A stretch of DNA of 64,000 nucleotides from NCBI GenBank assembly GCA_964581605.1, contig CAZOPF010000001.1, positions 45,786 to 109,785 on the forward strand, in the 5' to 3' direction. Positions within the stretch are counted from its first letter, which is position 1; each line of letters starts with the position of its first letter. This DNA comes from an uncultured Ardenticatenaceae bacterium (GTDB lineage Bacteria; Chloroflexota; Anaerolineae; Promineifilales; Promineifilaceae). This document shows positions 1 through 30,073 of the stretch, one piece after another. The position numbers and the translations under genes are program-made. The notes under the pieces were generated by a model. The model did no database searches. It was given only the letters and a program-made list of their open reading frames with translations, and was not told the origin of the DNA.

Positions 1-22
1 CATATGGCTTACCTTCGTCGGC

Positions 23-2227
23 ATGATGATCATCTGGCCGGCCTCAGTTTTGGTCCTCTCAGGATTTGGCATTATATTAGGCATGAGCCTGCCCATCCTT
101 GTTATTCTGATCACCGATAGCCTGTTACCCCCAAAAGGAATCACATTGGCGGCCGTCATAGCTACCATTGTGGGGGCGGTGACCGTGTTGATTGATCTAT
201 TCGGGCCGGCAAATCGCACACAGGTCCCTCCGGCCGTGGAAGCATTTTTGCCCGCCATGGTTATAGCCATCATCCTCATTTATGGCCTCTTTATTGCCTA
301 TAATTTTAAGAATTACAGTATGCGTGCCAAGCTGATTACGGCCACGGCCATGGTGTCCATTGTGTCTGTGGTTGCGGTCACTATCATTGTCGGTATTACT
401 ACTCGCAACGCTTTGATTGACCAGGTGGGCAATAACATGCAAAGTCTGGCTGAATCACAGGCGTTGGCGTTGGGCGAGGTATTGTCCCGCCAGATCAATA
501 TCATGGAAACCCTGGCCTTGAATCGGGCTGTGACCGATGCCGTGCAAGCCCGCAATGCGTTTTATGAGGGGCAAACGCCGCAAGAAATTGAAGCGGCGAA
601 TCTGGCATTGAGCCAACAATGGCATAATGCCGACAGCACCGACCGGCTGGTGTTAAGTATTATGAACAACTCTACTTCACAACAGTTGGTGAGCTTCCAG
701 CAAACGTTCCCTGATCATACCCTTCTTTTGCTTACCGACATAAACGGCGTTCTGGTAGCTGCTTCCCAACGGCCGGATCGTTTTGATTATAGTGAAGAAG
801 AATGGTGGCAAAATACCTATTCATCTGGTTTTGCTGCTGTGCATGTTGGCCAGCCTTATGTATCTGAGACTCGTGATGATGTGCTTGTGGATATTGCTGT
901 ACCTGTGCGTACTGTAAACAATACCGGACGTTCAAAGGTTGCGGGCGTACTGCTCACCTCATATAGTCTGGCTTCGGTAGCCGAAATTTTGCGGCAGTCT
1001 GTCTTTGGCGATTCGGGTCATTTTCATCTGCACTTTCCGAATTTCCGGCAGATGAAGTTACATGAAGGCGAAGAAGGAAAGTTGTTGGAATTTATACTTC
1101 CCGACGAAGCAAACATTGTAGATCGCTTGTGGTTCAATAACCTGCCTTTCTTAAACGACTTTTTTGAGGGCGTTCCCAGCCTGGTAAGCCAGGCGCGGGT
1201 GAATACGTTGGCTTATGAACCAAAGGTGGACAGCCTGGGGTGGCGGGTGGTTGCTGTGCAAGATGAAGCTGAGGCTTTGCAACCTGTGGAGCAACAACAG
1301 CGCACCAATATCTTGTTAGGCGTGTTTATTGTGCTGCTGGCTTCAGGGATGGCCGCACTTATTGCCCAGCTTCTTTCCCAACCCATTATCAGGCTGACGA
1401 ATACGGCCGTGCAAGTGGCTGAAGGCGACCTGTCTGCCCGTGCTGTTGTGCAAAGCAATGATGAAATTGGCACATTGGCGACCACCTTTAACCGGATGAC
1501 GGACCAACTGCAAGAATCTATTACAGGGCTGGAACAACGAGTTGGCGAACGTACCCGCGCTTTGACAGCCAGCGTAGAGGTGAGCCGCAGCCTTTCTACC
1601 GTATTAGACCCCGATCAATTGGTAGTGGAAGTGGTTGAACAGGTACGCGCAGCTTTTGGTTATTACTATGTCCAAATCTATCTGTTTGATGATCAACAAA
1701 ACCGGCTGTACATGGTGGGCGGTACTGGCGAAGCGGGGCAGGTTTTGCTGGCACGGGGTCATTCTTTAGCTGCCGGGCAAGGGCTGGTTGGCCGAGCGGC
1801 CGCCACCAATACCCCCGTCTTTATTCCTGATGTCTCTTTAGCACCTGAGTGGAAGCCAAACCCACTGCTGCCGGATACACGGGCGGAAATCACCCTGCCC
1901 ATTGCTATTGGTGAACGGGTTCTGGGTGTGCTAGACGTGCAGCATGATGTGTCTGATGGATTGGTTGAAGAAGATGTTCAGGTGTTGCAATCGGTGGCTT
2001 ATCAGGTGGCTATTGCCATCCAAAATGCCCAGTCATTTGACCAGGCGCGTAAGCAGGCAGAACGCGAAGCGATGATTAACGCAATTAACCAGAAAATCCA
2101 AAGCGCCACCTCAGTAATGGCCGTGTTACAAATTGCAGCCGAAGAATTGGGACATGTGTTCGATGAACAAAAGACCAGCGTCCAGCTTTTTAATCCGGCA
2201 CAAAAAGCAAACGGGAACGGCCGTTAA
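23..2227 (+). CDS. Membrane sensor protein: Cache-like extracytoplasmic domain, HAMP, GAF and a conserved C-terminal tail; no catalytic output domain
   Basis: 734-aa ORF from ATG 23. N-terminal TM helices are followed by a ~330-aa loop homologous to the N-terminus of the 2957-aa neighbour (EEWWQNTY vs QEAWWQAAY), then a second TM. HAMP-like PIIRLTNTAVQVAEGDLSARAVVQSNDEIGTLATTFNRMTDQL. GAF signature WKPNPLLPDTRAEITLPI..GERVLGVLDVQH. The promoter lies off-window. Confidence 0.85.
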   Translation: MMIIWPASVLVLSGFGIILGMSLPILVILITDSLLPPKGITLAAVIATIVGAVTVLIDLFGPANRTQVPPAVEAFLPAMVIAIILIYGLFIAYNFKNYSMRAKLITATAMVSIVSVVAVTIIVGITTRNALIDQVGNNMQSLAESQALALGEVLSRQINIMETLALNRAVTDAVQARNAFYEGQTPQEIEAANLALSQQWHNADSTDRLVLSIMNNSTSQQLVSFQQTFPDHTLLLLTDINGVLVAASQRPDRFDYSEEEWWQNTYSSGFAAVHVGQPYVSETRDDVLVDIAVPVRTVNNTGRSKVAGVLLTSYSLASVAEILRQSVFGDSGHFHLHFPNFRQMKLHEGEEGKLLEFILPDEANIVDRLWFNNLPFLNDFFEGVPSLVSQARVNTLAYEPKVDSLGWRVVAVQDEAEALQPVEQQQRTNILLGVFIVLLASGMAALIAQLLSQPIIRLTNTAVQVAEGDLSARAVVQSNDEIGTLATTFNRMTDQLQESITGLEQRVGERTRALTASVEVSRSLSTVLDPDQLVVEVVEQVRAAFGYYYVQIYLFDDQQNRLYMVGGTGEAGQVLLARGHSLAAGQGLVGRAAATNTPVFIPDVSLAPEWKPNPLLPDTRAEITLPIAIGERVLGVLDVQHDVSDGLVEEDVQVLQSVAYQVAIAIQNAQSFDQARKQAEREAMINAINQKIQSATSVMAVLQIAAEELGHVFDEQKTSVQLFNPAQKANGNGR

Positions 2228-2246
2228 CCGGATTTGAGGAATACTC

Positions 2247-4739
2247 ATGCGCACACGAATGAAGGCATTCTTAGCACCCCCCGTTTTTCCAGATGATGAA
2301 GACAAAAGCCGTATTGCCAGTCTGCTCAATATCATCTTGTTGGGCCTCCTTTGTTTCATGGGAGTCATCGTACTCACGACCCTCTTTACCAACCCCGCCC
2401 CTGGCTCGTTGTTGGTGAATAGTACAACACTGACAATCGCCATTTTCTTGTATTATCTGTTCCGGCGCGGCCATGTTTTTTTGGTCAGCACACTGACCAT
2501 CACTATCTTCTGGTCTGTTTTAGCTTTCCTCACCTTTTTTGGTGGCGGGCTAACATTGTCCATTGTCACCAGTTACTTTGTGATATTGGTTATGGCGGCC
2601 GCCCTGTTGGGCCAAACCGCTACAATCCTTGTTGCCGCTGCCTCTCTGGTGGTCTGGACAATAGTGGGCATTTTGCAGATAAACGGACAATTGCCCGAAT
2701 CCATAACCCCCTACAATCTGGCAACAGATATAGGCGGTACATTTGGCAGCCTGATCATCTGTGCCCTCATCCTTTACCTGACTGTTAGAAACCTGAACCA
2801 ATCCCTGGCCAATGAACGTGAGAGCAATCAGCGGCTTTATGTTTATCAATCTCAGCTTGAAGAACGTGTGCGTTCCCGCACACATATTCTGGCACTGGCG
2901 GCGGAAATTGGCCGTGATCTATCCCAGGTGCGTGATGTAGAAGATTTATTGCGTGGTGCTGCTAACAGTATTTATAAAGGATTTGGTTTATATCATGTCC
3001 AGATTTATCTGGTAGATGCTTCCGGGCAAAATCTGGTCTTGCGGGCCGGTACGGGTTCGGTAGGTCAGGAATTACGCTCGCGTGGGCACAGCCTTCCCCT
3101 GAATGCAGCCTCAACAAATGGGGCCGCGGCAATCAATCGTCAGGCTGTAATTGTGGCGGATACGGCCTTGAGCCTTACTTTCCGCCCTAATCCTTTGCTG
3201 CCAGAAACCCGTTCAGAGATGGCCGTACCGCTCATTGCCAGCGATATGGTTGTAGGTGTACTGGATTTGCAAAGCGCACAACCACATGCCTTTTCCACTG
3301 ACAACCTGGGCGCGTTTGAAATTTTGGCCGGGCAGTTAGCCATTGCTATTGAAAACGCCCGCCTGATTCGTGATACCAGCCAGGCACGGACTGAATTAGA
3401 AGCCCGGGTTCGGCAATCGGCCCGTACGGACTGGAATCAATATCTGGATGCCATTCGTCATGGGGAACGAATAGGTTTTGTATACAACGCTGGTGCATTG
3501 TCACCAATTTCAGAGTCAATAATGGAATACGGCCGTGCCCAAACTGTGCCTATTAAACTGGCGGGCGAAGAGATTGGCACGATAGCGTTGGAGGAAACAG
3601 TTGCAGAATTATCGGCGGCTGATAGAGAGATGATGAATGCTATTGCCCGTCAGGTGAGCCAACAAATTGAGAATTTGCGGCTGTTAGAAGAAGCCGAGCG
3701 CTATCGCCGTGAAGCTGAAGAAGCCGCTCATCGCCTGATTCGTGAGGGGTGGGCGGATGTGTGGCAGGCGGGAAAGGATATGGGATTTGTGTATGACCAG
3801 ACGGCCGTGCAGCCATTACCCGATATGCCCGATATGGCCGCCGATGTTGTGGTGCCGCTTGCCGTTCAAGGTGAGGTAATTGGTCAACTGGAATTGGCCG
3901 GTATTGCCGCCGATGATGCCGAGACGAAGGAATTGGTAACGGCCGTAGCTGCGCGCCTCAGTGCCCATCTGGAAAACCTGCGCCTCACGGTTCAAACAGA
4001 AGAAGCTCTTTCGGAAGCCAGGCAGCGCACGGCGGAGTTAAACATTCTCAATGAAATGGAGGTGGCGTTTGCCGCTGCCCGCGAGACCGACGAGATGCTG
4101 GCACTCATCCACACCTACGCCTCCCGCCTGATCCGTCCTACCGAAAACCTATATATTGCTCTTTATGATGAAGCTCAGGACGAGATAGTCATCTACCTGT
4201 ATTATAAACCCGGCGAGATAGTCATGTCAGACAAAGTAGAAAATATCATTCGTCGCCGCAGCGGTAATGGAGTGACGGAATATGTGATGCGTACACGCAA
4301 GCCCTTGCTGATAAATGGCGATATGACGGCCGTAGCGGCTGAAATGGGCTTTGATGCTATTGGCGCCCGTTCCCAATCCTGGATGGGCGCTCCTTTAGTT
4401 GTTGGTGATCATGTGTTGGGAGTGGTAGCTTTACAGAGTTTTAGCACCCCTCATTTATATGGTGAATACCAGTTGGAATTGCTGACAGCCATTGCCAGCG
4501 GTGCGGCTATCGCCCTGGAAAATATACATCTGCTGCAACAGGTGCAGTCGCGTGCCCGCCAGGAACAGATTTTGCGGGAAGTGACGGCACGGGTCTACAC
4601 GGCCGTTGATGCCGAATCCATTCTGCGCACGGCCGCGCAGGAATTGAACCTCCACCTGGGGCTGGAAACCTTTATCTACCTGGAAGAACAAACCGAACCT
4701 GATATCGTCGCTGCCAATGGTGGTAATGGACACCACTAG
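2247..4739 (+). CDS. Multi-TM, multi-GAF sensor protein without an output domain
   Basis: 830-aa ORF with GAGGAA about 6 nt upstream of ATG 2247. Hydrophobic N-terminal ~190 aa with several TM helices. GAF (RPNPLLPETRSEMAVPLIASDMVVGVLDLQS). A REGW-type module (LIREGWADVW..GFVYDQ..VVVPLAVQGEVIGQLEL). A second GAF type (SWMGAPLVVGDHVLGVVALQSF). Tail ILREVTARVYTAVDAESILRTAAQEL. Confidence 0.85.
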   Translation: MRTRMKAFLAPPVFPDDEDKSRIASLLNIILLGLLCFMGVIVLTTLFTNPAPGSLLVNSTTLTIAIFLYYLFRRGHVFLVSTLTITIFWSVLAFLTFFGGGLTLSIVTSYFVILVMAAALLGQTATILVAAASLVVWTIVGILQINGQLPESITPYNLATDIGGTFGSLIICALILYLTVRNLNQSLANERESNQRLYVYQSQLEERVRSRTHILALAAEIGRDLSQVRDVEDLLRGAANSIYKGFGLYHVQIYLVDASGQNLVLRAGTGSVGQELRSRGHSLPLNAASTNGAAAINRQAVIVADTALSLTFRPNPLLPETRSEMAVPLIASDMVVGVLDLQSAQPHAFSTDNLGAFEILAGQLAIAIENARLIRDTSQARTELEARVRQSARTDWNQYLDAIRHGERIGFVYNAGALSPISESIMEYGRAQTVPIKLAGEEIGTIALEETVAELSAADREMMNAIARQVSQQIENLRLLEEAERYRREAEEAAHRLIREGWADVWQAGKDMGFVYDQTAVQPLPDMPDMAADVVVPLAVQGEVIGQLELAGIAADDAETKELVTAVAARLSAHLENLRLTVQTEEALSEARQRTAELNILNEMEVAFAAARETDEMLALIHTYASRLIRPTENLYIALYDEAQDEIVIYLYYKPGEIVMSDKVENIIRRRSGNGVTEYVMRTRKPLLINGDMTAVAAEMGFDAIGARSQSWMGAPLVVGDHVLGVVALQSFSTPHLYGEYQLELLTAIASGAAIALENIHLLQQVQSRARQEQILREVTARVYTAVDAESILRTAAQELNLHLGLETFIYLEEQTEPDIVAANGGNGHH

Positions 4740-4766
4740 CCTACCCTTTTTCTCGATTGGAGAATT

Positions 4767-7700
4767 ATGATGACTGAACCAATTCAACCAGATATGTCGC
4801 AAACAATCCGTGTACGTATAGCCCGGCTTCTCGACAATCTGGCAAAACCATCCAGCACCATTACAGACCCCGCCGAGCGGCTACAGGTTCGCTTTCTGGC
4901 CACCATCACGCTGGTTATTGCTGGTTTAACGGCCGTCAACATTCCGCTGCGTCTGGTTTCAGGTAGTGCCTATGAACAACCGGTGGAATTTGTTGTTTAT
5001 CTGCTCGTAAGCCTCACATTGCTGTTGGCTTATGGGCTGAGCCGCACCGCATACTACCGCTGGTCGCCACTGGTCTCTGTGACTGCACTTACCTCCACCA
5101 TTTATGCCTCATTCTTTCTGGTAGACCCTCCTAGCCAAAGCGCCTTTCTTTTCCTAGTGGTCATTGTGTTATTTGCCAGCGCCATTCTTTCTAGCCGAGA
5201 CACCTTTTTATATGCGGCAGTCAACATTCTCTTTTTGCTCATAGGGCCTTTACTCATTCCCAGCCTGGAATACTCTTTTTTAGGTCAGGCCATTGGTTTG
5301 CTCATCATTTGCACCACGCTCATTACTGTGGCAAACCAGCATCGCGATCGTGTGGCAGAAGTGCAGCGGCAAGAATTGCGAGAAGCCAACCAACAATTAC
5401 AAAACTTCAGCCAGATTCTGGAAGCACGTGTGCAAGAGCGTACCAACGACCTGGCGCTGGCTTCAGAAGTGGGGCGGGCGATCTCGCAAATTCGAGACCT
5501 GGATGAATTGTTGCAGCAGGCTGTTAACTTGATTCGGGAACGGTTTGACCTGTATTACACCCAGGTTTACCTGATGGATGAAGCCGACCAGCGGTTGATG
5601 CTGCGTGCCGGTACGGGCATGGCCGGGCAAACGCTCCTGGCGCAGGGGCACAGTTTGCCGGTGGACGAACATTCCATCAACGGCCGTGCTGCCGCCTATC
5701 GCCAGCCAGTTATCGTGCCCGATACCGGAACCAGCGACTTCTTCCGCCCCAACCCAATTTTGCCGGCCACCCGCTCGGAAATGGCCGTGCCGTTGCTGGT
5801 GCAAGATCGGGTGGTGGGGGTGATTGACTTGCAAAGCAGCCAGCCCCACGCCCTGACCAATGAGAATCTGCCCGCTTTTGCCGCTCTGGCCGGGCAGTTA
5901 GCCATAGCTATTGCCAATGCTGACTTGCTCAACGAGATGCAAGTGGCTACAGGTTTCTTAGATTCGGTCATTGAAAATATCCCTTTGATGCTCTTTGTCA
6001 AAGAGGCGACTGATTTGCGTATGGTACGTTGGAATCGTGCCAGCGAAACCCTCAGTGGCTTTCCCCGAGAATTTGTTCTGGGCAAAACAGACAGAGACAT
6101 TGTGCCGGCTGATGAAGCAGAATTTTACATGAGTAAAGACCGGGAAGTGTTGAATAGTGGCCAGTCGTTGGTCATACCAGAAGAGGAGTTTCAGTCAGCC
6201 AGCCGTGGCTTGCGCATTCTGCGCACCACCAAAACGCCTATTTTTGATGTTTACGGCCGTCCTAAATACCTGCTAGGCATCTCTGAAGATGTGACGGAAC
6301 GCAAACAGATTGAAGAGCAGTTAGCAGAACGGTTAAAACAGCTCAACTTACTCAACGAAATTGGCCGCAGAGCTGAAGAATCAAACAACGTGCCGGAATT
6401 TATGACCTGGATTACCTGGCGTGTACCTCAGGCTATGGGCCACCCAGAGGCGTGTATTGCGGCGGTTACAATGGGGACAGAGTTGTTTGGAGATAGGCGA
6501 GCGGTGGAGATGCCCCGGCATATGGTAGAAGACCTGACGGTGCGTGGCGAAATGGTGGGGCGTATTCATATCGCTTACATTGAAAGCACCTTGAATTTCC
6601 GTGATGAAGATAGCGCCATTATTGGTGGGGTGGGGCGGCGCGTGAGTAGCTTTGTGGAAAACCAACAATTGCTGGCAAAGCTGCAAAGGCAGGCTGAAAA
6701 TTTGCAAAAAGTGGCCGAAATCGGTACGGCCGTTGCCGCCAGCCGCAACCCATATCAATTGATGCAAGATGTGGCCGAAAAGACACGCGCCGCTTTTGAT
6801 CTTTACCAGACGGCCGTATTTCTGTTAGAGGAAAACCAACTGATATTAACCGGCGCGGCCGGTAATCTGGGTGTGGAAGCCAGCAGCCAAAGCCCACGCA
6901 TTTCAGCCAAATCACCCAAGTCATTGGTGGCGCGGGTGGCCCGCACGGGCCTGGGTATTCTGGTGAATGATGTAACCACCGAACCGGACTTTTTGGCCCA
7001 TCCATTGTTGCCGGATACCAAATCTGAAATCGTAGTGCCGTTGCTGGTGGGCCGCCAGGTGTTAGGTGTGCTGGATATGCAGTCCAGCCAGCAAGATGCC
7101 TTTAACATAGACGACCTTAACATTTTCACCACCCTGGCTTCCCAGGTGGCTATTTCGTTGCAAAATGCCCGGCAGTATGAGCAAACTCAAATGGCGTTGG
7201 ATGAACTCAGTTCATTGCAGCGTGTCATCACGGGCGAAAGTTGGGAATTGTTCTTAAAAGGCCGTCAGCGTGGAGTAAAAGGGTTTATGGTCAACCGCCA
7301 AAGCGCGCGCCCCATTGTGCGCCAGACGGAGGATGAGGAGACGGCCGTGCCAGAATCTGCTGATGTAGCGCCACAACCCGTCTCACTTGCCGCGTTGGCG
7401 GATGCTCAGGCATATGCGACCCCCATACAGGTGCGCGGGATGACCATTGGCAAACTGGGGGTGCGTGTGGCGGACAACACACCCATTATGCCTGAAACGC
7501 AGGCATTACTGGCTGCCATCTCCCAGCAAGTAGCCGGGGCCCTGGAACGTGCCCGCCTGTTTGAAGAAACTGAACTGGCCCGTGCCCAAACAGAGCAACT
7601 CTTTGCTGGCAGCGAGCGTGTGGTGCGGGCCACCACCTTAGACGAAGTTTTGCAGGCACTCATTTCCTCTACACCATTGCAACAAATGGATCGTGTCAAT

Positions 7701-8321
7701 TTGATGTTTTTTGACCAACCCTGGAATGAGCAGATGCCGAATACGATGACGGTGACGGCCGTGTGGGAGAGGGAAGGCCAGAAATCATTGGCCCCGGTGG
7801 GCACCGTATACAAACTGGCCGATACCCCGTTTATGGCCCAAATCCATGCTGGCTACCCCACCATTATCCGCGATATAACAACTGATGAACGGGTAGATGC
7901 AGCCACCAGAAATGTCTTAACCCGGCTGAAAACAGTGGGGATGGGCATTTTCCCGCTCGTGGTTGGCCGTGATTGGCTGGGGGTGGCCAGTTGCCAGTCT
8001 CATGAGCCATTGGAACTGACCGATGCCGCTATTCGCCAGGTTAGCAGCCTGGTGGATCAGGCGGCTACGGTGGCCCAAACACAACGGTTGTTTGAGGCGG
8101 CCCAGGCTCGTGCCCAACAGGAACAGGTGCTGCGGCGCGTGTCGGAACGGGTATACACGGCCGTAGATGCCGAATCGGTGCTGCGCACGGCCGTGCAAGA
8201 AGTGGGCCGTGTGTTGGGGCTGGAAGCGTTTGTCTATCTCAATGACCGGGCAACGGCCGTGCCTGAAGCCGGCCCACTGCCCGAAAAAGCAGCCAACGGT
8301 GCGGCGGTCGGTGGCCTCTGA
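4767..8321 (+). CDS. Multi-TM GAF-PAS-GAF sensor protein without an output domain
   Basis: 1184-aa ORF with GGAGA upstream of ATG 4767. N-terminal TM block. GAF (RPNPILPATRSEMAVPL). PAS (FLDSVIENIPLMLFVKEATDLRMVRWNRA...GISEDVTERKQ). Further GAF-like modules (AHPLLPDTKSEIVVPL). REGW-type module. Tail VLRRVSERVYTAVDAESVLRTAVQEV. Confidence 0.85.
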   Translation: MMTEPIQPDMSQTIRVRIARLLDNLAKPSSTITDPAERLQVRFLATITLVIAGLTAVNIPLRLVSGSAYEQPVEFVVYLLVSLTLLLAYGLSRTAYYRWSPLVSVTALTSTIYASFFLVDPPSQSAFLFLVVIVLFASAILSSRDTFLYAAVNILFLLIGPLLIPSLEYSFLGQAIGLLIICTTLITVANQHRDRVAEVQRQELREANQQLQNFSQILEARVQERTNDLALASEVGRAISQIRDLDELLQQAVNLIRERFDLYYTQVYLMDEADQRLMLRAGTGMAGQTLLAQGHSLPVDEHSINGRAAAYRQPVIVPDTGTSDFFRPNPILPATRSEMAVPLLVQDRVVGVIDLQSSQPHALTNENLPAFAALAGQLAIAIANADLLNEMQVATGFLDSVIENIPLMLFVKEATDLRMVRWNRASETLSGFPREFVLGKTDRDIVPADEAEFYMSKDREVLNSGQSLVIPEEEFQSASRGLRILRTTKTPIFDVYGRPKYLLGISEDVTERKQIEEQLAERLKQLNLLNEIGRRAEESNNVPEFMTWITWRVPQAMGHPEACIAAVTMGTELFGDRRAVEMPRHMVEDLTVRGEMVGRIHIAYIESTLNFRDEDSAIIGGVGRRVSSFVENQQLLAKLQRQAENLQKVAEIGTAVAASRNPYQLMQDVAEKTRAAFDLYQTAVFLLEENQLILTGAAGNLGVEASSQSPRISAKSPKSLVARVARTGLGILVNDVTTEPDFLAHPLLPDTKSEIVVPLLVGRQVLGVLDMQSSQQDAFNIDDLNIFTTLASQVAISLQNARQYEQTQMALDELSSLQRVITGESWELFLKGRQRGVKGFMVNRQSARPIVRQTEDEETAVPESADVAPQPVSLAALADAQAYATPIQVRGMTIGKLGVRVADNTPIMPETQALLAAISQQVAGALERARLFEETELARAQTEQLFAGSERVVRATTLDEVLQALISSTPLQQMDRVNLMFFDQPWNEQMPNTMTVTAVWEREGQKSLAPVGTVYKLADTPFMAQIHAGYPTIIRDITTDERVDAATRNVLTRLKTVGMGIFPLVVGRDWLGVASCQSHEPLELTDAAIRQVSSLVDQAATVAQTQRLFEAAQARAQQEQVLRRVSERVYTAVDAESVLRTAVQEVGRVLGLEAFVYLNDRATAVPEAGPLPEKAANGAAVGGL

Positions 8322-8388
8322 CGCCCTACCACTTGTTTCAACACACGCGGTGGCCCATCTCAAACCAGGGCGCCGCCGGTAATGGACT

Positions 8389-17262: not shown

Positions 17263-17272
17263 GAGTGGTTGT

Positions 17273-20200
17273 ATGGCGATACGAAACAAGCCAAACGAAA
17301 TGGTGATGCCGGAACCGGACGTGTTGTTAGAGCAGCGGGTGGCTGTCTTTCAGCCCATGCTGGAGATTTCCCCTGATCCTTCGATCATTTATGATGCCAT
17401 CGGGCAGGTGGTGTATGTCAATCCGGCGTTTAGCCAAGTTTTTGGTTGGGAATTGTCGGAGCTGATTGGACATCGGCTGGATTTTGTGCCGGAAGAACGC
17501 AAAGAGGAGACAGCCATAGCCATCAATGCCTTATTGCAGAACGGCGTTGCCACCAACTTTATCACCAAACGATTGACCAAAGACGGCCGTGTGCTGGATG
17601 TGCAAACCAGCGCCATTGTTTTGCGGGAGCATGATTCCCCGATGTTTGGCTCTCTGGTCATGATCCGGGACATTACCGCCCAAAAAGAGGCCGAGCGTTC
17701 TCTACGTGCCAGCGAAATACGCTACCGGGAAATGCTAGAGAGTACGCCCGACGCTTATTATGAAGTGGATTTAAGCGGTGCTATTACGTATTACTCCCCT
17801 GGATTAGCTGAGGTGTTGGGCTACCCGGAAGAAGAACTGTTGGGCCTGAGCAACCGTGACTATGCCAATACCGCGAATGCTCGCCAGATTTATGAGGCTT
17901 TTAACCAGGTGTACCACACCGGCCAACCGGCTAAGGCCATTCTCATGCACACCATCCGCAAAGATGGTACGCCGCAAATACTGGAAACCTCTATCGCTTT
18001 GAGGAAAGATGAATCTGGTAATACCATCGGCTTTCGGGGGATTGCGCGTGATGTAACCGGGCTGGTTCGCAAGCGGCAGGAAGCAGAAGAAGCACTGTCT
18101 CACTCAGAAGAGCGGTATGGCACCATTCTGCAAACTATTGAAGATGGCTATTACGAAACGAATTTGAAAGGGGATTTCACTTTTGTAAATGAGCAGTGGG
18201 CGGCTATTCACGGCTGTTCTGTGGCGGAGATGCTGGGCACCAACTATAAAGACTATACCATTCCGGATCGGGTTGATGCCATCTATGCCCAGTTTAACCG
18301 GGTGTACGACTCTGGCGAACCAGTTAAGAGCCTGGTTAATGAAATTGCCACGAAGGACGGCCGTTACTGTCACCTGGAAATATCGGCCTCTCTGGTCCGC
18401 GATAATGATGGTCAGCCAATTGGCTTCTGCGGCATAGGGCGGGATGTGACCGACCGTATTCAAAATGAAGCGCAGTTGCGGGAGTCTGAAGCCCGTTACC
18501 GCACCATCATGGAAAGCATTGAAGATGGGTATTATGAAGCGGACCTGGATGGCAGCTTCACCTTCATGAATGATCAATTATGCGAGGTGATTGGCTACCC
18601 ACGCCATGAATTGATGGGGAAGAATTACCGCGACTATACGACTCCCGAAACGGCCGAACGGGTCTTTGCCACATTTAACCAGGTATATAAAACGGGTGAG
18701 CCGGTGAATGGGTTTGTATGGGAGGCGTTTGGCAAAGACGGCCGTATCCGCCACCTGGAAACCTTTATCCTACCCCGGTTTAATGAAGCGGGCGAGACCA
18801 TCGGCTTCCGCGGTGTGGGGCGGGATATTACACAGCGGGTGCAGGCCGAAGAAGCATTGGCAGAAGCGCTCATAGACCAGGAGCGTATTGCTTCGCAACT
18901 GGCAACAGTGGCTAAGGTGAGCACGGCCGTGTCCACCATCCTCGACCCGCAAGAAATGTTGCTCGCTGTCGTAGACCAGGTAAAAGAGAGCTTCAACCTG
19001 TATCACACCCATGTTTATCTGCTCAACGAAGCGGGAGATACGCTAGAACTTGTGGCTGGGGCCGGGGAAGTTGGCCGCCAGATGGTGCAAGAAGGGCGTT
19101 CCATTCCGCTGACGCAAGAACAATCCCTGGTGGCCCGTGCCGCTCGCAGCCGGTCTGGCATTATCGCCAATGATGTACGCAAAGACCCCCACTTTTTGCC
19201 TCACCCCCTGCTGCCCAACACACGCGCCGAGCTGGCTGTGCCCATGATCGTGGGGAATCAGGTGTTGGGCGTCTTAGACATGCAGGCTGATACCACCAAC
19301 CGATTTACCCAACGTTATGTTAATATACAGACCACATTAGCTACCCAGATTGCTGTGGCCTTGCAAAATGCCCGTCTGTATGCCCAGGCACAACGACAAA
19401 CGGTCGAACTACAAGAAACCTCCGCTCTGCTTGACCAGGTTGTGGAAATCCTGCCCGTAGGTCTCTTTATGAAAGAGGCTGAAAATTTGCGTTTTGTGCG
19501 CTGGAACAAAGCGAATGAAGAGATCACCGGCCTGAAACATGCCGAAGTCATTGGCAAAAACGATTATGACTTTTTTGCCAAAGAACAGGCTGATTTCTTT
19601 ACCTCCAAAGATCGAGAAGTATTGGGTGGTCGGGCAATGGTGGATATTGCCCAGGAAGCCATTGGCACGGCTCATCGCGGGCAGCGGCTGTTGCACACCC
19701 GCAAATTGCCTATCCTGGGAGCCGATGGCACGCCTCGTTACCTGTTGGGTGTTTCCGAAGATATTACCGAACGCCATCAGGCCGAAGAGACCCTGCAAGC
19801 ATCGCTGGCGTTGCAGCAGACGTTACATGATATAAGCCTGGAACTGACCCGTGCCGAAACGTTGAAGGAGTTGTTGCAGCAGGCAATTTTGTTGGGCCAT
19901 CAGCGCCTGAATTTTGATCGGCTCGGACTTTACTTGTTTGAGAGGGAGACACGGCGGTTTACCGGCACGTTTGGTACAGATAAGCAGGGCAATTTGATTG
20001 ATGAACGGGATAGCGTTTTTGATATTAGCGAAGAAGATTATCTGGCTCAGTTCAGTGATATACGGCAGCGGGTTTTTGTGCGGCATGATGCAGAGTTGTA
20101 TGACGCCAAACAGGTAGCCGGCCGGGGCTGGCATCTGACTGTGCCACTGTGGCAAAGCGACCAATTTGTAGGTGCTTTATTTGCGGATAATCTGGTGAGT

Positions 20201-23200
20201 CAACGGCCGTTACAGCCGTATGAGCCGGATTTGCTGGTGGCCTATGGTAGCACCATTGCCAGTTTGATAGAACGCAAACAGGTGGAACTCACCCTGCAAG
20301 AAACAAACACACGGGCGCAAGCCATCTTGGAATCGGTGACGATGCCCATGCTTATCTCCAGGGTGGCCAACGGCCGTATTCTCTATGCCAATGAACTGCT
20401 GGCCGATCTGGTGAATATGCCCCTGGCGATTCTGTTGGAACAGGGAACACCAGATTTTTATGTGCGGGCGGATGACCGGGCGGCCGTTGTGAGTGAGATT
20501 CAGGCCAAAGGCAGTGTAACCAGCTATGAGCTGGAACTCAAACGTACTAACGGAGAACATTTCTGGGCACTACTTTCGGCCCGTTTGTTTAGTTATCAAA
20601 ATGAACCGGCTATCCTGACCACGCTTATTGATATTACCGAACGGAAGCAGGCTCAAGAAGCCATACGCCAGAGTGAGCAGGACATTCAGGAATCATTGCG
20701 ATTGCAGCAAACCCTGCATGAAGTGGGGCTGGAACTGGCTAAAGTTGAATCTTTGGACGAACTATTCCGGCAGGCCATTGTGCTGGGAACGAGCCAACTT
20801 AATTTTGAACGCATTGGGCTGTTTACCTATAACAAAGCCACTAATCAGTTCAGCGGGACATACGGCCGTGATATGCAAAGTAATTTGCGAGATGAAAAGG
20901 AGTTCTCGTTCACCTTTCCAGAAGAAGATTTCAACCTGCGCTTTGGTGATATCCGGCGGCGTGTCGTTGTGGAGCGTGGTGTACCTTTGTATGATTTTGG
21001 CCTCCTCCTGGGGCATGGTTGGCATCTCACAGCGCCTATTTGGCAAAATGATGAACTGATAGGCGCATTGTTTGCTCAGGAACCAACAAATCCAGGACGG
21101 CCGTTGAAACCATATGAAGCAGATTTGTTGGCTTCTTACGGCGCTCTGCTGGCAAACCTCATTGAACGTTTACAAAATCAACTCGCTGTGCAGGAATCTC
21201 TGCGAATGCAACAAACCCTGCATGAAATAAACCTGGAACTTTCCCAGGCCGATAGTATGGACGACCTGTTTCGGCAGGTTATACATCTGGGTGAAAAACG
21301 GCTAAACCTGGAACGTTTTGCCCTGTTTCTATATAACGAGGCGCAAAACAATTTCTCTGGCACTTATGGAATTGATAAAAACGGCAATCTACGTGATGAA
21401 CATGGGGCAGAATATGTCATTAGTGTGCCAGAGATAGTAGACTATTTCCGTGACACGAAACAACGTATTTTAATTCAGGAAGCTTGTGACTTGTGGGATG
21501 ACGGTGTGGTGGTTGGGCAAGGCTGGCTGGTTACGGTACCTGTGCGGCAGGGTAATAGATTAGTGGGCATTTTGTTTACCGATAATTTGATCAGCCAACG
21601 GCCGTTATCCCCCTATTTGCGTGATATCGTTATTGCTTATAGCAATCTCATTGCTAACCTGATGGAGCGCAAACAGGCGGAAGGGTCGGTAACGGCCGCG
21701 CTGGCAGAAACTGAGCGGCTCTATGAGATGAGTGCCCGCTTGAATACCGCCACGTCCATAAGCGAAATCATGGAAGCGGTTGTAGGGCCGGTCGCCGGGC
21801 AAGGTCTGGCGGCGGCGAATTTGTTTTTGCTGGAGGTGGATGATAACGGCCGTCCTGAATGGATGGAAATGGCAGCCAATTGGGTTAACCCTGGCAGTTT
21901 GTTCGCTAATGTAAATTTCCCTATTGGCTCTCGTTTTTATCTGCCAGACCTGCCCGCAGCCAGGCATTGGATTGATAACCCCCACGGCCTCCTTTTGTAT
22001 AGCGACGTAGATCATGACGACCGGCTGGATGATGCCACCCGTGGGTTATATCAGTTGGTTGGCATAAAGGCCGGAGCGAACCTGCCTTTACGCACCGGTA
22101 ACAGATGGGTGGGTTTAGTTACACTTGCCTGGACCCATACGAAGATCTTCACCGAGGATGATCTGCGTACCTATCGGGCGCTGGCCGACCAGACCGCCAT
22201 TATTTTGAATAATCAACTCCTCTTTGAACAAACCCAAAAGCGAGCGGCCGAACTGGCAACAGTAGCCGAAGTGGGCGCTGCCATTACCACCATCCGTGAC
22301 GTAGATTCTCTGTTGCAGCGAGTGGTAGACCTGGCAAAAGAGCGGTTTAGTTTGTACCATGCCCACATTTACTTGTTAGATGAATCTGAAAATCTGATAC
22401 TTACCAGTGGCGCCGGCGAGGTGGGGCGGCGAATGGTAGCCGAGGGGCGTTCCATCCCGCTGACTCAGGGACAATCACTGGTAGCTCGTGCGGTGCGTAC
22501 GCGCCAGGGTGTGATTGTCAATGATGTTACGGCCGATGCGGGATTCTTGCCCCACCCCCTGCTGCCTGATACCAAATCGGAACTCGCCGTGCCCATGATT
22601 GTGGGTGTGGAGGTGCTGGGCGTGCTGGATATTCAGGCCAGCCGGATCAATCACTTTTCTGAAGAGGACATCCAGACTCAAACCACATTGGCCGCCCAAA
22701 TTGGCGTGGCGCTGCAAAATGCGCGTTCTTTTGCTCGTTCAGAAGCGGCCTTGAAGGAGCTGGAAGAGATCACCCGGCGTCTGCGCCGCGAAGGTTGGGA
22801 ATCCTATGTGCAGACCAGGGGACGAAATGGTTTGAGCTATGGGTATGATCAGAAGGAAGTGAAAGCGTTGGCTCTGGCAGCATCGGTGAAATCGCGCTCC
22901 CGAAAGAAAGATACGGCCGTAACCCCTACGCTAATCCACCCCTTGCAAGTGCAGGGCGAATCCATTGGTAATCTGATGCTGGCCGAGCCAACAGCCCTCA
23001 ATGATGATGCCCAGGATATTATGACGGCCGTTGCCGAACGCCTCAGTGCCCACATTGAAAACCTGCGCCTCTCTGAACAAACCGAGCAAGCCCGCCAACA
23101 AGCCGAGCAGTTATTCCAGGGTAGCGCTGCCCTCAATACCGCCCAAACCTATGAAGATGTGCTCAATGCCTTGCGCCAGCACACCATTATCGGTAGTGCA

Positions 23201-23830
23201 GGTATGAATAGCAGTACCATCAATTATTTTGATCGTCCCTGGACAAAAACAGAAACGCCAGAAATGATAGAGGTATTGGCGCGTTGGAGCCGTCTGCCCA
23301 TTGAGGCACTGCCCATGCGCTTCTCCTTTGCCACGTTTGCCTCCATGGCCCACCTGCTGCAACCGGAAGCGCCCACGCTCATTGCAGATGTCGCCAACGA
23401 TAAACGGTTGAGCAAAGAGGCGGCCGCCTTTTTCCAGAATTTCTTTCAGGCGGAAAGTCTGGTTTTCATGCCGTTGCTCAGTGGGTCGCAATGGGTGGGT
23501 TTCATCAATGCTATTTATGACCAAAAGACCCCATTCCCGGAGATAGAAATTCGTCGCCTCACCGTGTTGAGCCAGCAGGCCACTGTCGCCATTCAAAGTA
23601 TCCGCCTCTTTGCCCAGGCCCAGGCGCGGGCCGAACGTGAACGCCAGGTGCGTACCATCACGGATAAAATTCGGCGTGGCAATGATCGGGAGGCTATCCT
23701 GCGTATTGCCCGCGAAGAATTGAGCGTGTTGTTGGGCGCTTCAAAATCTGTGGTGCATTTAGGCGTGCCAGAGCAGTTACTACCCACCGTGGCAAATCTG
23801 GAGCAATCGCCAACGGGCCATGGTGAGTGA
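17273..23830 (+). CDS. Cytoplasmic multi-PAS/multi-GAF sensor protein (~2185 aa) without an output domain
   Basis: The ORF track starts at 17189, overlapping the upstream gene. ATG 17273 has AGGAG 8 nt upstream and lies 10 nt after the upstream stop. Four tandem N-terminal PAS domains (e.g. YRTIMESIEDGYYEADLDGSFTFMN), two further PAS, canonical GAFs (LPHPLLPNTRAELAVPM, LPHPLLPDTKSELAVPM) and three FDRLGL/FERIGL-type GAF-like modules. Tail QVRTITDKIRRGNDREAILRIAREEL. No TM segments. Confidence 0.88.
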   Translation: MAIRNKPNEMVMPEPDVLLEQRVAVFQPMLEISPDPSIIYDAIGQVVYVNPAFSQVFGWELSELIGHRLDFVPEERKEETAIAINALLQNGVATNFITKRLTKDGRVLDVQTSAIVLREHDSPMFGSLVMIRDITAQKEAERSLRASEIRYREMLESTPDAYYEVDLSGAITYYSPGLAEVLGYPEEELLGLSNRDYANTANARQIYEAFNQVYHTGQPAKAILMHTIRKDGTPQILETSIALRKDESGNTIGFRGIARDVTGLVRKRQEAEEALSHSEERYGTILQTIEDGYYETNLKGDFTFVNEQWAAIHGCSVAEMLGTNYKDYTIPDRVDAIYAQFNRVYDSGEPVKSLVNEIATKDGRYCHLEISASLVRDNDGQPIGFCGIGRDVTDRIQNEAQLRESEARYRTIMESIEDGYYEADLDGSFTFMNDQLCEVIGYPRHELMGKNYRDYTTPETAERVFATFNQVYKTGEPVNGFVWEAFGKDGRIRHLETFILPRFNEAGETIGFRGVGRDITQRVQAEEALAEALIDQERIASQLATVAKVSTAVSTILDPQEMLLAVVDQVKESFNLYHTHVYLLNEAGDTLELVAGAGEVGRQMVQEGRSIPLTQEQSLVARAARSRSGIIANDVRKDPHFLPHPLLPNTRAELAVPMIVGNQVLGVLDMQADTTNRFTQRYVNIQTTLATQIAVALQNARLYAQAQRQTVELQETSALLDQVVEILPVGLFMKEAENLRFVRWNKANEEITGLKHAEVIGKNDYDFFAKEQADFFTSKDREVLGGRAMVDIAQEAIGTAHRGQRLLHTRKLPILGADGTPRYLLGVSEDITERHQAEETLQASLALQQTLHDISLELTRAETLKELLQQAILLGHQRLNFDRLGLYLFERETRRFTGTFGTDKQGNLIDERDSVFDISEEDYLAQFSDIRQRVFVRHDAELYDAKQVAGRGWHLTVPLWQSDQFVGALFADNLVSQRPLQPYEPDLLVAYGSTIASLIERKQVELTLQETNTRAQAILESVTMPMLISRVANGRILYANELLADLVNMPLAILLEQGTPDFYVRADDRAAVVSEIQAKGSVTSYELELKRTNGEHFWALLSARLFSYQNEPAILTTLIDITERKQAQEAIRQSEQDIQESLRLQQTLHEVGLELAKVESLDELFRQAIVLGTSQLNFERIGLFTYNKATNQFSGTYGRDMQSNLRDEKEFSFTFPEEDFNLRFGDIRRRVVVERGVPLYDFGLLLGHGWHLTAPIWQNDELIGALFAQEPTNPGRPLKPYEADLLASYGALLANLIERLQNQLAVQESLRMQQTLHEINLELSQADSMDDLFRQVIHLGEKRLNLERFALFLYNEAQNNFSGTYGIDKNGNLRDEHGAEYVISVPEIVDYFRDTKQRILIQEACDLWDDGVVVGQGWLVTVPVRQGNRLVGILFTDNLISQRPLSPYLRDIVIAYSNLIANLMERKQAEGSVTAALAETERLYEMSARLNTATSISEIMEAVVGPVAGQGLAAANLFLLEVDDNGRPEWMEMAANWVNPGSLFANVNFPIGSRFYLPDLPAARHWIDNPHGLLLYSDVDHDDRLDDATRGLYQLVGIKAGANLPLRTGNRWVGLVTLAWTHTKIFTEDDLRTYRALADQTAIILNNQLLFEQTQKRAAELATVAEVGAAITTIRDVDSLLQRVVDLAKERFSLYHAHIYLLDESENLILTSGAGEVGRRMVAEGRSIPLTQGQSLVARAVRTRQGVIVNDVTADAGFLPHPLLPDTKSELAVPMIVGVEVLGVLDIQASRINHFSEEDIQTQTTLAAQIGVALQNARSFARSEAALKELEEITRRLRREGWESYVQTRGRNGLSYGYDQKEVKALALAASVKSRSRKKDTAVTPTLIHPLQVQGESIGNLMLAEPTALNDDAQDIMTAVAERLSAHIENLRLSEQTEQARQQAEQLFQGSAALNTAQTYEDVLNALRQHTIIGSAGMNSSTINYFDRPWTKTETPEMIEVLARWSRLPIEALPMRFSFATFASMAHLLQPEAPTLIADVANDKRLSKEAAAFFQNFFQAESLVFMPLLSGSQWVGFINAIYDQKTPFPEIEIRRLTVLSQQATVAIQSIRLFAQAQARAERERQVRTITDKIRRGNDREAILRIAREELSVLLGASKSVVHLGVPEQLLPTVANLEQSPTGHGE

Positions 23831-23920
23831 GCAGGTAAAATAAGCGAGAAGTTAACCGGCTGATGGTTGGTATAGGCAGCTAGCCACCAGTCACTAACGA
23901 CCATTTACGAAGGATATAAG

Positions 23921-24295
23921 ATGCCACAACAAGTGACTTTGATTGCCGCTAATATCGTCAAAATTGAGTTTATCGGTGATGTGACCGATGACGATGCCCT
24001 GCAAAACGCGGATCAAATTGATCAATTTATAGCGAATCTACCAGCCGATGAACGGCTTCATTTTTTGGTAGACGCCACGCGGATAGGTAAGATTTCCACC
24101 AGAGCACGCCATGTGTTTACCGAACGAAACAAGAATCCAAGGGTGGGCCACACAGCGATCTTTGGTGTTAACCGGGCACTCAAAGTATTGGGCGTATTTA
24201 TTGCCAAGGCGAGCAAACGAGACAATCTCCATTTTGTCAATGATGAAGCAGAAGGGTTGGCGTGGCTGCAAGAGAAGGCAAACCATAAGTGGTGA
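23921..24295 (+). CDS. Small STAS/SpoIIAA-like fold protein (tentative)
   Basis: 124-aa ORF with GAAGGA upstream of the ATG. The pattern IVKIEFIGDVTDDD....ERLHFLVDATRIGKIS..AR......NPRVGHTAIFGVN resembles STAS/SEC14-like (DUF3478-type) proteins. Assigned from recall of the family pattern only. Confidence 0.5.
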   Translation: MPQQVTLIAANIVKIEFIGDVTDDDALQNADQIDQFIANLPADERLHFLVDATRIGKISTRARHVFTERNKNPRVGHTAIFGVNRALKVLGVFIAKASKRDNLHFVNDEAEGLAWLQEKANHKW

Positions 24296-24332
24296 AGGTA
24301 ATATCACCCATTTTCAGTGAGAGGAATTGGCA

Positions 24333-25610
24333 ATGGCAGATAAGCTGACCTATGCACAGTATAAACGGATGGTGGAAGAGCAAGGACAGGCTATTCTGGA
24401 TGTGTTGGCTCTGGCTGCTACCGGCACGCTGGATGTGGAGCTTGAGATTCCCGAAGGGATCGAGGTGATGTCTGACCTGGCCATCGGGTTTTCTTATCTC
24501 ATGGATGATATTAAGGCCCTGCTCCGGCAGCAGCGTGAATATCAACGAGAACTGGAGCAACGAGTAGCCGAACGCACGGCCGAACTGGAACGGACACTGG
24601 CCGAGCTACGTAGTATGCAAAGCCGGTATGTCCGTGAGCAGTGGGAAGGATATAAGGTGGTAGACACGGCCGTACCCGATGACTCTCTCGACGCGCTCTG
24701 GCTGCCAGCTCTGGCTGAAGCGGTGCAATCACACAAAGCAGTGCATATGGCCCCCGCCGGCCATGGTGTGGCGCTGGCTTTGCCCATCATCTATGCAGAC
24801 GAACCAATTGGTGCGCTGGCTTTAGGCCGGGATGACGATATCCCCTGGGATGAAGAAGAAATAATGGCTGCCCAAGATATCGTAGAGCAGTTGGGTCTGG
24901 CATTGGAAAACCAACGGTTGTTTGATCAGTCACAACAACGGGCAGCGGAACTGGCTATCCTCAATGAAATGGTGGGTGAATTAGCCCAACTCCTGGACGA
25001 AAGCCCCATTCTGGAAGCCATTTATCGCTACAGTTCCCGGCTGATGGATACCACCAATTTTTATGTTGCCATCCACAATAAATACACAAATGAAGTTGCT
25101 TTTCCCATTGCTGTGGAAGATGGCAAACGAGTAACCTGGCGTTCACGGCCGTTTGGTAATGGCATGAGCGAATATCTGCTGCGCACCGGCCAATCCCTTT
25201 TTGTGGAAGATGGGTTGGAAAAGTGGCTGCGCAGCCAGGGTGTGGAATCCATTGGCAGCCCATCCCGGTCCTGGATGGGTGTGCCGCTGCGTGTGGGCAG
25301 CGATGTGGTGGGGCTGATTGCTCTGCAAAGTTTGCAGCCTCGTTTTTATACACGAGAACAATTCGACCTGCTCAACGCCGTGGCCAACCAGGCTGCCATT
25401 GCCATTCAAAATGCCCGCCAATTCCAACAGGAACAGGCACGTGCCCAACGCCAGCAAATGCTGCGTGAAATAGCCGCAAAGGTTCGTGGTTCGGCCGATG
25501 TAGATACGATTATGCGCACGGCCGTGCAAGAAATCGGCCAGGCATTGGGGCGGCAAGCCTACATTTACCTGGGCGCTCAAACTACCCAAACGGCCGATGA
25601 GGATGCCTGA
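24333..25610 (+). CDS. Soluble GAF protein with a REGW-type module and the conserved tail; no output domain
   Basis: The ORF track begins at TTG 24327. ATG 24333 lies 9 nt after GAGAGG. N-terminal coiled coil (QRELEQRVAERTAELERTLAELR). Module YVREQWEGY..LPIIYADEPIGALAL. GAF of the LAILNEMV...SWMGVPLRVGSDVVGLIALQS type. Tail MLREIAAKVRGSADVDTIMRTAVQEIG. Confidence 0.85.
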   Translation: MADKLTYAQYKRMVEEQGQAILDVLALAATGTLDVELEIPEGIEVMSDLAIGFSYLMDDIKALLRQQREYQRELEQRVAERTAELERTLAELRSMQSRYVREQWEGYKVVDTAVPDDSLDALWLPALAEAVQSHKAVHMAPAGHGVALALPIIYADEPIGALALGRDDDIPWDEEEIMAAQDIVEQLGLALENQRLFDQSQQRAAELAILNEMVGELAQLLDESPILEAIYRYSSRLMDTTNFYVAIHNKYTNEVAFPIAVEDGKRVTWRSRPFGNGMSEYLLRTGQSLFVEDGLEKWLRSQGVESIGSPSRSWMGVPLRVGSDVVGLIALQSLQPRFYTREQFDLLNAVANQAAIAIQNARQFQQEQARAQRQQMLREIAAKVRGSADVDTIMRTAVQEIGQALGRQAYIYLGAQTTQTADEDA

Positions 25611-29689: not shown

Positions 29690-30073
29690 ATGGAAGGTAC
29701 ACGTAAAAAAGTGATGTGCGTTGAAGACAATTCAGTCAATATGCTGTTGGTCTCGCGCATTGTGGAAGCTGAGGGGCATGAATTGGTGCAGGCTGTTGAT
29801 GGCTATGCCGCTCGTGATATTTTGAAAGAGATGGTGCCGGATATCATCTTGCTGGATATTAACTTGCCCGGCGTTTCTGGTTTGGAATTGGCGCGTGAGT
29901 TTAAGTCGGATGTCCGGTTGACAAAAGTGCCACTGATTGCCACAACAGCCCAGGTATTGGTGGGAGATAGGGAGCGCTGTTTGGAGGCTGGCTGTGATGA
30001 TTATCTGCCCAAACCATTAGACATACGGAAGCTGCGCGAAGTGCTGCGATTTTATTTGAATAACGGCCAATAA
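29690..30073 (+). CDS. Single-domain response regulator (CheY-like receiver)
   Basis: 127 aa with AAAGAGGAA 5 nt upstream of the ATG. Motifs KVMCVEDN and DIILLDINLPGVSG (acceptor Asp codon 29855-29857), PLIATTA, and DDYLPKPLD with the conserved Lys. No output domain. Confidence 0.95.
   Translation: MEGTRKKVMCVEDNSVNMLLVSRIVEAEGHELVQAVDGYAARDILKEMVPDIILLDINLPGVSGLELAREFKSDVRLTKVPLIATTAQVLVGDRERCLEAGCDDYLPKPLDIRKLREVLRFYLNNGQ

Follow-up and report, generated by a model that had tools for sequence, protein, structure and literature searches.

The window analysed here is a stretch of 64,000 nucleotides (C1:45786-109785) from a 6.06 Mb Anaerolineae genome assembly. Its subject is a C-terminal segment of about 50 residues, referred to below as the tail, that is common to six sensor proteins (A to F) encoded in a single co-directional gene row spanning window positions 2-30073. 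Gene architectures were assigned with Pfam (Table 1), which found only dCache, HAMP, PAS and GAF domains in sensors A to F and no output domains. The row also encodes a small STAS-like protein (F0), a terminal histidine kinase (G) and a single-domain receiver. A seventh tail-bearing sensor (Z; C1:44133-45527), a protein of 458 residues with a membrane N-terminus, a GAF domain and a tail, lies directly upstream of the window and is first in the row, so that the window edge cuts the array. The count of six tailed sensors made in the first-pass annotation of this DNA consequently stands for the window, while the total is seven.

The six C-termini align over about 50 residues; each tail is preceded by an (A/S/R)RAxxE(R/Q) junction, and the stop codon follows 9-23 residues past the tail end. 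A hidden Markov model (HMM) of the six tails, searched against all 83,290 six-frame open reading frames (ORFs) of the genome, returned the six window tails at 69-76 bits and the upstream seventh at 24 bits (36 bits with a longer profile), the next match having E=0.06. The genome-wide specificity of the tail is far beyond chance. Kinase G gave no match to the tail profile (best score -0.5 bits), nor did the profile find a tail elsewhere in the genome among the 17 remaining GAF proteins that lack a kinase core. The first-pass annotation had described a shared tail on the six window sensors, at coordinates that agree with those found here, an (A/S)RA..E(R/Q) junction ahead of it, and a histidine kinase without it; all three descriptions are borne out, the junction in the slightly broader form given above.

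Five proteins of the row (B, C, E, F and G) end in a common syntax, REGW module - GAF - X, in which X is the tail in the sensors and the dimerisation/histidine-phosphotransfer and catalytic (DHp-CA) domains in the kinase. The REGW module (REGW...GYxYD...low-complexity...PLxVxGExIGxL) is a degenerate GAF domain that lacks the pocket half and has low-complexity sequence in place of its middle. A and D are transmembrane dCache-HAMP receptors; their signal must exit at the C-terminus, where the tail is the sole conserved feature.

Table 1. Features of the gene row and of the tails, in window coordinates
Feature	Position	Strand	Description	Basis
Sensor A	2..2227	+	dCache-HAMP-GAF-tail; 5' end outside the window	Pfam
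Sensor B	2247..4739	+	Membrane N-terminus, GAF, two REGW degenerate GAFs, GAF, tail	Pfam
Sensor C	4767..8321	+	Membrane N-terminus, GAF, PAS, GAFs, REGW module, GAF, tail	Pfam
Sensor D	8389..17262	+	2957 residues; dCache-HAMP, about 12 GAF, 2 PAS, tail	Pfam
Sensor E	17189..23830	+	6 PAS, 8 GAF, tail; ORF from GTG at 17189	Pfam
F0	23921..24295	+	124-residue SpoIIAA-like/STAS-like protein	Pfam PF11964
Sensor F	24327..25610	+	HAMP-like helices, degenerate GAF, GAF, tail	
Terminal histidine kinase G	25597..29544	+	PAS/GAF array, REGW module, GAF, HisKA, HATPase; no tail	
Single-domain receiver	29690..30073	+		Pfam PF00072
Tail of sensor A	2042..2197	+	QARKQAEREAMINAINQKIQSATSVMAVLQIAAEELGHVFDEQKTSVQLFNP	Tail profile, local GAF HMM
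Tail of sensor B	4542..4691	+		Tail profile, local GAF HMM
Tail of sensor C	8100..8249	+		Tail profile, local GAF HMM
Tail of sensor D	17038..17190	+		Tail profile, local GAF HMM
Tail of sensor E	23618..23770	+	Only tail not placed in register by the local GAF HMM	Tail profile
Tail of sensor F	25431..25580	+	Tail type best conserved elsewhere	Tail profile, local GAF HMM
REGW modules of B	about 3340-4040			
REGW module of C	about 7170-7610			
REGW module of D	about 13080-13510			
REGW module of E	about 22710-23120			
REGW module of F	about 24690-24920			
REGW module of G	about 27860-28310			

Several further observations were made on the genes of the row. B and C lie in the same reading frame with 27 nucleotides between them (window 4737-4769), as do E and F0, which are separated by 90 nucleotides with two further stops inside (window 23828-23923); F and G overlap by 14 nucleotides (window 25597-25610). 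The true start of E is probably near 17300 rather than at the GTG at 17189. The polytopic membrane sensors, for whose membrane domain there is no Pfam model, have in common an N-terminal peptide, (R/K)xFLAPPVFxDxEKxRxAxLLNxxL, which precedes the first membrane helix and was seen in B (window 2247-2340), in Z (C1:44154-44250) and in small sensors of other arrays (loci L022-L026).

Kinship, conservation and predicted structure of the tail

A local GAF HMM, built from 30 full-length GAF domains of eight proteins of the row with the tails excluded, placed six of the seven tails in register with its positions 2-50 of 171 at 13-20 bits, a region that corresponds to the linker helix, first helix and first strand of the domain. 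Profile comparison shows the tail to be homologous to this N-terminal segment of GAF domains, and the match extends no further, in keeping with the earlier claim that the tail stops past the first beta-strand. It had also been claimed that the tails resemble the GAF domains of the same proteins. As far as homology to a GAF start is concerned this holds, but the closest kin lie elsewhere: the row's own GAF starts score <=4 bits with the tail profile, and the best PDB matches of that profile are the N-termini of GAF domains of the phytochrome/cyanobacteriochrome (CBCR) class. Residues 10-54 of SyB-Cph1 (8W26, 2LB5), residues 138-182 of the dual-sensor kinase 6OAP (35 bits) and the CBCR GAF domains 6XHG and 6BHN align with the tail over 45 residues at 21-35 bits; the start of the PHY domain of SyB-Cph1 and the CBCR GAF domain 6OZA were also among the matches.

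Besides the second helix and the first strand, the alignment with phytochrome and CBCR GAF domains takes in the Ile-Thr of the RIT motif and the S-x-D kink. In PAS-less phytochromes the RIT-motif helix is a conserved stretch of 15 residues with Arg-Ile-Thr that stands just ahead of the GAF core. Tail positions 12-15, which read R (72%), E (58%), I/V (96%) and T/S (74%), align to N-R-I-T of SyB-Cph1, with Ile-Thr kept and the Arg shifted by one position. The corresponding SyB-Cph1 segment consists of the alpha1(RIT) helix and alpha2, which form a three-helix bundle with the last helix of the domain; sister RIT helices are in contact at the dimer interface, and SyB-Cph1 without residues 2-29 changes from dimer to monomer on size-exclusion chromatography (PMC11264168). 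The likeness to alpha1(RIT)-alpha2 of SyB-Cph1 and the CBCRs lies in the alignment of the tail to the very segment that makes the SyB-Cph1 dimer contact (PMC11264168). However, that segment begins a complete bilin-binding GAF domain and packs on the last helix of that domain, whereas the tail is C-terminal, has nothing beyond the first strand and carries conserved residues of its own (R4, T30, A31, G36 and G40). Complete GAF domains with a tail-type start (52 bits) were found in kinases of another Chloroflexota class (genomes G139 and G218).

No family was reported by Pfam for the tails alone, and the GAF models PF01590, PF13185 and PF13492 do not report them. NCBIfam holds no tail model and gave only a weak match, to the GAF start in the cyanobacterial Tlr1612/SesC model. 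The HisKA/DHp transmitter domain is a helical hairpin that follows the last sensor domain and bears an H-box (H-E-L-R-T-P-L). In position and in helix-turn-helix outline the tail resembles it, but the HisKA model gave no match on the tails, and no His is conserved among 151 of them. A complete GAF fold comprises about 150 residues, with a six-stranded sheet, helices on its flanks and a ligand pocket, and the tail falls short of it, the protein ending 2-55 residues past the first strand. As a helix-helix-strand unit of 50 residues it is likewise distinct from the STAS alpha/beta fold of ~110 residues; the STAS-like fold of the row belongs to the separate protein F0.

A search with the six-tail profile of 1.84 billion cluster representatives gave 7632 matches at E<=1e-3 and 1204 at E<=1e-10, of which the best 150 were sorted. 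Ninety-five of these have a single strong match (45-85 bits) whose end is 4-45 residues from the C-terminus. In the remaining 55, which are long multi-GAF proteins and include one from the cyanobacterium Leptolyngbya, the profile matches weakly (10-35 bits) at many internal sites, which represent ordinary GAF starts. Median scores were 71 bits for the terminal matches versus 21 bits for the ordinary GAF starts. A kinase core occurs in none of the 95 tail-bearing representatives as opposed to 21 of the 55 others. The first-pass annotation had allowed that the motif might be absent from orthologous clusters; by HMM and database search it is present in them and restricted to proteins without a kinase core. 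The named tail records are all from Chloroflexota (Ardenticatenaceae, Promineifilaceae, Leptofilum, Anaerolinea and Anaerolineales).

Comparison of 151 terminal tails with 172 internal GAF starts revealed positions conserved specifically in tails (R4, Q9, E13, R/K17, D/E25, R29, T30, A31, E34, G36 and G40), while L22 and R43 of ordinary GAF starts are absent from them. The pattern A-x4-G-x3-G of the second helix is also specific to tails, and the strand is hydrophobic on both faces (F45, V/I46, Y47 and L48). Across 521 paralogue pairs from 20 arrays, the tail equals in conservation (35% versus 32%) the beta5-beta6-alpha5 core of the preceding module, which is the best-conserved part of the GAF fold. 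The tails of B and C are 64% identical in amino acids and 73% in nucleotides, whereas the 150 nucleotides ahead of them are 33% identical, which is background, and the last GAF domains <20%; this likeness points to either local gene conversion or selection acting much more strongly on the tail than on the adjacent GAF domain. The tail thus stands as a conserved C-terminal module in its own right, about 50 residues long.

In an AlphaFold model of F (mean predicted local distance difference test [pLDDT] score of 79.7), the last GAF domain is complete, with its own first helix (residues 223-237) and first strand (243-249), and its last helix runs uninterrupted through the junction as a helix of 45 residues (341-385). 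After residue 385 the chain kinks over four residues and enters a second helix (390-405; pLDDT about 68-70), and the residues of the tail strand are modelled as unpaired coil with falling confidence. Since the last GAF helix is continuous, the tail stands ~27 helical residues past the last GAF domain, at the site of a next domain or of the DHp domain in a kinase. Hydrophobic residues recur along the junction helix at positions 10/11, 14 and 18 of the tail alignment. The S-helix, a coiled coil of about 40 residues found between sensor and output domains, has a conserved signature of its own (PMC1592074). A strand that is unpaired and of low confidence would be the expected look of a piece that needs a partner. 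The preceding GAF domain was considered as that partner and rejected, because its first helix and strand are already present and the tail is located well beyond it. The earlier annotation had also raised the prospect that the tail is simply the end of a complete known domain; in the model a complete GAF domain precedes the tail, and Pfam has no model for what follows. A fold search with the F model returned ordinary tandem GAF domains and nothing on the tail.

Arrays in other genomes

Matches to the tail profile were found in 27 of 41 related genomes and in 28 of 301 genomes sampled across the phylum, mostly from the same class, with two families of other classes besides; one of these families (G139 and G218) has the complete GAF domains with a tail-type start mentioned above rather than terminal tails. 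Genomes with tails contain 1-18 matches, nearly always several, in one or two co-directional rows, and in both complete single-contig genomes of the sample all listed matches lie in one row. Local models were used to annotate 21 arrays from Anaerolineae and two other Chloroflexota lineages. Each array has 3-18 tail genes in one co-directional row, and in all 21 the last gene of the row encodes a GAF histidine kinase that lacks a tail (tail-type segment <=17 bits). The constant presence of a kinase at this place is not due to chance, because in this genome the kinase-core ORFs number 91 and the genes roughly 5500, so that kinases account for only about 1.7% of the total.

Some array members depart from the plan of one protein with one terminal tail. 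Fused consecutive members exist in metagenomes, such as P0013, in which an E-like protein is joined to an F-like one, and P0016, a cluster seen in seven records, has both an internal and a terminal tail. In P0013, P0014, P0016, P0080, P0094 and P0114, a low-complexity linker joins the internal tail-type segment to a downstream half-GAF, which consists of the beta-hairpin and the last helix, so that a tail-type start can belong to a pocket-less GAF domain in cis. Certain relatives of F (P0167 and P0169) carry at the C-terminus, in the place of the tail, an RsbR-type STAS domain, and array G018 has a matching F0-like gene at the same position as in the window, before the last sensor.

A gene for a ParA/MinD-type ATPase of about 265 residues (KGGVAKTT; Pfam AAA_31/CbiA) lies inside the sensor row of some arrays, at loci L023-L035 (G083, G289, G059, G120, G138, G305 and G265) and also in G033, G025 and G040. 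In one Anaerolineae family it is always found between the last sensor and the kinase; the window's own array has no such gene. The kinase of that family starts with a conserved basic peptide, MPKKPKxxKRLDxLFxD, followed by a low-complexity stretch and a half-GAF that lacks the first helix and strand. The ParA-like gene in the row and the basic N-terminus of the kinase suggest a positioned assembly.

Possible roles of the tail

The reading favoured here, to which about an even chance is given, is that the tail is a stub for self-association, located at the site that a transmitter domain would otherwise occupy. It is favoured because the nearest characterised relative of the tail, the N-terminal segment of SyB-Cph1, is a dimerisation element. 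The tail comprises a junction helix with an R-E-I-T (RIT-like) motif, a kink, an amphipathic second helix with A-x4-G-x3-G and a hydrophobic strand, and corresponds to the N-terminal dimerisation segment and first strand of a phytochrome/CBCR-class GAF domain from which the remainder of the fold is absent. It terminates the helical spine of the kinase-less PAS/GAF sensors, at the site taken up by the DHp domain in the kinase of the row. Within a sensor dimer, the two tails would pack as a small helical cap. Because all sensors of the row carry the same module, tails may also link different sensors into a mixed assembly, which would be read out by the single co-encoded kinase. By analogy with SyB-Cph1, the tails are predicted to self-associate, and their association would couple the sensors to each other and to the kinase.

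Three points weigh against self-association. The helical bundle of SyB-Cph1 also uses the last helix of its domain, which the tail does not have. Terminal kinases carry no tail-type segment (<=17 bits), so that contacts of like with like cannot by themselves connect the sensors to the kinase. Furthermore, the strand is conserved on both faces (F/V/Y/L), and this feature would suit a strand buried in a sheet no less well than a helical cap.

In a rival reading, the tail would instead be a docking element that binds the terminal histidine kinase, for example at its DHp hairpin or last GAF domain, or some other shared protein, with many sensors competing for or jointly regulating one kinase. Such docking agrees with the place of the kinase as last gene in 21 of 21 arrays, with the tail's occupying the DHp position (26 residues from ENAR to the kink, as compared with 30 from ENAR to the phospho-histidine in the kinase), with the 14-nucleotide overlap of F and G, and with polar positions that are conserved only in tails and suggest a common interface; the kinase-adjacent sensor, moreover, usually has the best-scoring tail in arrays without an intervening ParA-like gene. 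Nevertheless, docking is considered unlikely, as no conserved acceptor was found in the kinases and kinase architectures vary between families. An acceptor common to all arrays was also not found among the REGW half-GAFs, the internal tail-type segments and kinase N-termini, or F0. For F0 in particular, a docking role is suggested by its place directly after a tail gene in the same reading frame, both here and in array G018, and by the RsbR-type STAS that replaces the tail in P0167 and P0169. However, a STAS-like gene was found in only 1 of 20 other arrays (G018) in a search with F0. When the last helix and tail of E, the spacer (its three stops read as Gly) and F0 were folded as one AlphaFold chain, F0 took a predicted STAS-like alpha/beta fold (pLDDT 75-84) and the tail remained undocked (pLDDT 44-53), its strand as coil. 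As a negative this result is weak, since just 7 rows made up the alignment and the tail part had no aligned homologues. Docking of the tail onto F0 is accordingly regarded as very improbable.

The first-pass annotation had suggested, as speculation, a docking or fold-complementation element. In fold complementation the helix and strand of the tail would complete an incomplete GAF domain in trans, for example the half-GAF that comes after a low-complexity stretch at the N-terminus of the terminal kinase in some families. The hydrophobicity of the strand on both faces is consistent with this proposal, as are the complete GAF domains with a tail-type start (G139 and G218), the six proteins P0013, P0014, P0016, P0080, P0094 and P0114, in which an internal tail-type segment, linker and half-GAF read as one pocket-less GAF domain, and the Anaerolineae family in whose terminal kinases a basic N-terminal peptide and a low-complexity stretch precede a half-GAF without the first helix and strand. 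In the window kinase, by contrast, the first domain is a PAS domain and no half-GAF is left orphaned, the REGW modules own strand equivalents (GYxYD), AlphaFold did not pair the half-GAF of F with its tail, and from array to array the number of half-GAFs does not tally with that of tails. Complementation in trans is consequently rated quite improbable, and pairing with the REGW modules was set aside on the last three of these grounds and is kept only as a minor rival.

It may also be asked whether the tail signals at all, since a stub could stabilise just the last helix, or could be an inert leftover of a truncated ancestral GAF domain inherited by tandem duplication. Its length of only 50 residues would suit such an end-cap or remnant, and because all tail genes are paralogues in tandem rows, common descent would explain its presence. 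Nevertheless, the tail is conserved above ordinary GAF starts, with a signature of its own, and has been retained across Chloroflexota classes; the tails of B and C are far more alike than the remainder of those proteins; and the genome has 17 further GAF proteins that lack both a kinase core and the tail. A structural or vestigial role therefore has a slim chance of being correct. A C-terminal degron or sorting signal was rejected because the residues past the strand vary in length (2-55) and in sequence, and a membrane-targeting helix was rejected on composition.

An extension of self-association, tentative and considered unlikely, is that Anaerolineae possess a hitherto unrecognised signalling array of higher order, in which the tail acts as a universal joint by which up to 18 different output-less PAS/GAF sensors, both membrane and cytoplasmic, would gather around one histidine kinase, much as chemoreceptors do around CheA; in one family the row-encoded ParA-like ATPase might position this assembly via the basic N-terminal peptide of the kinase.

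Comparison with known systems

No description of the tail or of the row syntax was found in Pfam, NCBIfam or the full-text literature searched. The parts are known (GAF domains, the RIT helix and kinase-less sensors), while their combination, a C-terminal GAF fragment that marks rows of output-less sensors ending in one kinase, appears to be undescribed. Many bacterial sensors lack a visible output and bear no annotation beyond 'GAF domain-containing protein', and the tail provides a searchable handle for that class; among the best 150 matches at least 95 protein clusters carry it, and in all probably many more. If tails mediate assembly, many inputs would be fed into one two-component kinase through non-catalytic subunits, and the tail would exemplify a domain fragment kept for its interface alone.

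Short C-terminal elements shared by receptors have a precedent in chemoreceptors, where the NWETF pentapeptide tether recruits a common partner. The tail resembles it in being a short conserved C-terminal element common to several receptors, but NWETF is an unstructured peptide of five residues after a flexible linker, whereas the tail is a helix-helix-strand unit of 50 residues that is continuous with the helical spine. Sensors without a catalytic output of their own are represented by RetS, which forms DHp heterodimers with GacS, and by the accessory sensors of three-component systems, all of which are kinase-less or kinase-inhibiting partners of histidine kinases. The sensors of those systems act by protein contact with a histidine kinase, and the row sensors are like them in having no catalytic output. 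RetS, however, keeps a DHp domain, whereas the tail has no H-box and no HisKA match, and the partners are single in those systems as opposed to rows of 3-18 here.

In the stressosome, RsbR paralogues with variable N-terminal sensors share a C-terminal STAS assembly domain and are encoded together with RsbS and the RsbT kinase. The module shared in the row is a 50-residue GAF fragment rather than a STAS domain, its kinase belongs to the two-component histidine kinases and not to the serine kinases, and the assembly of the row sensors is a predicted one. As an analogy only, however, the two arrangements are alike in that one conserved C-terminal module recurs on several sensors that differ in their inputs and are encoded beside one kinase, and a STAS-like gene, F0, is present in the row as well.

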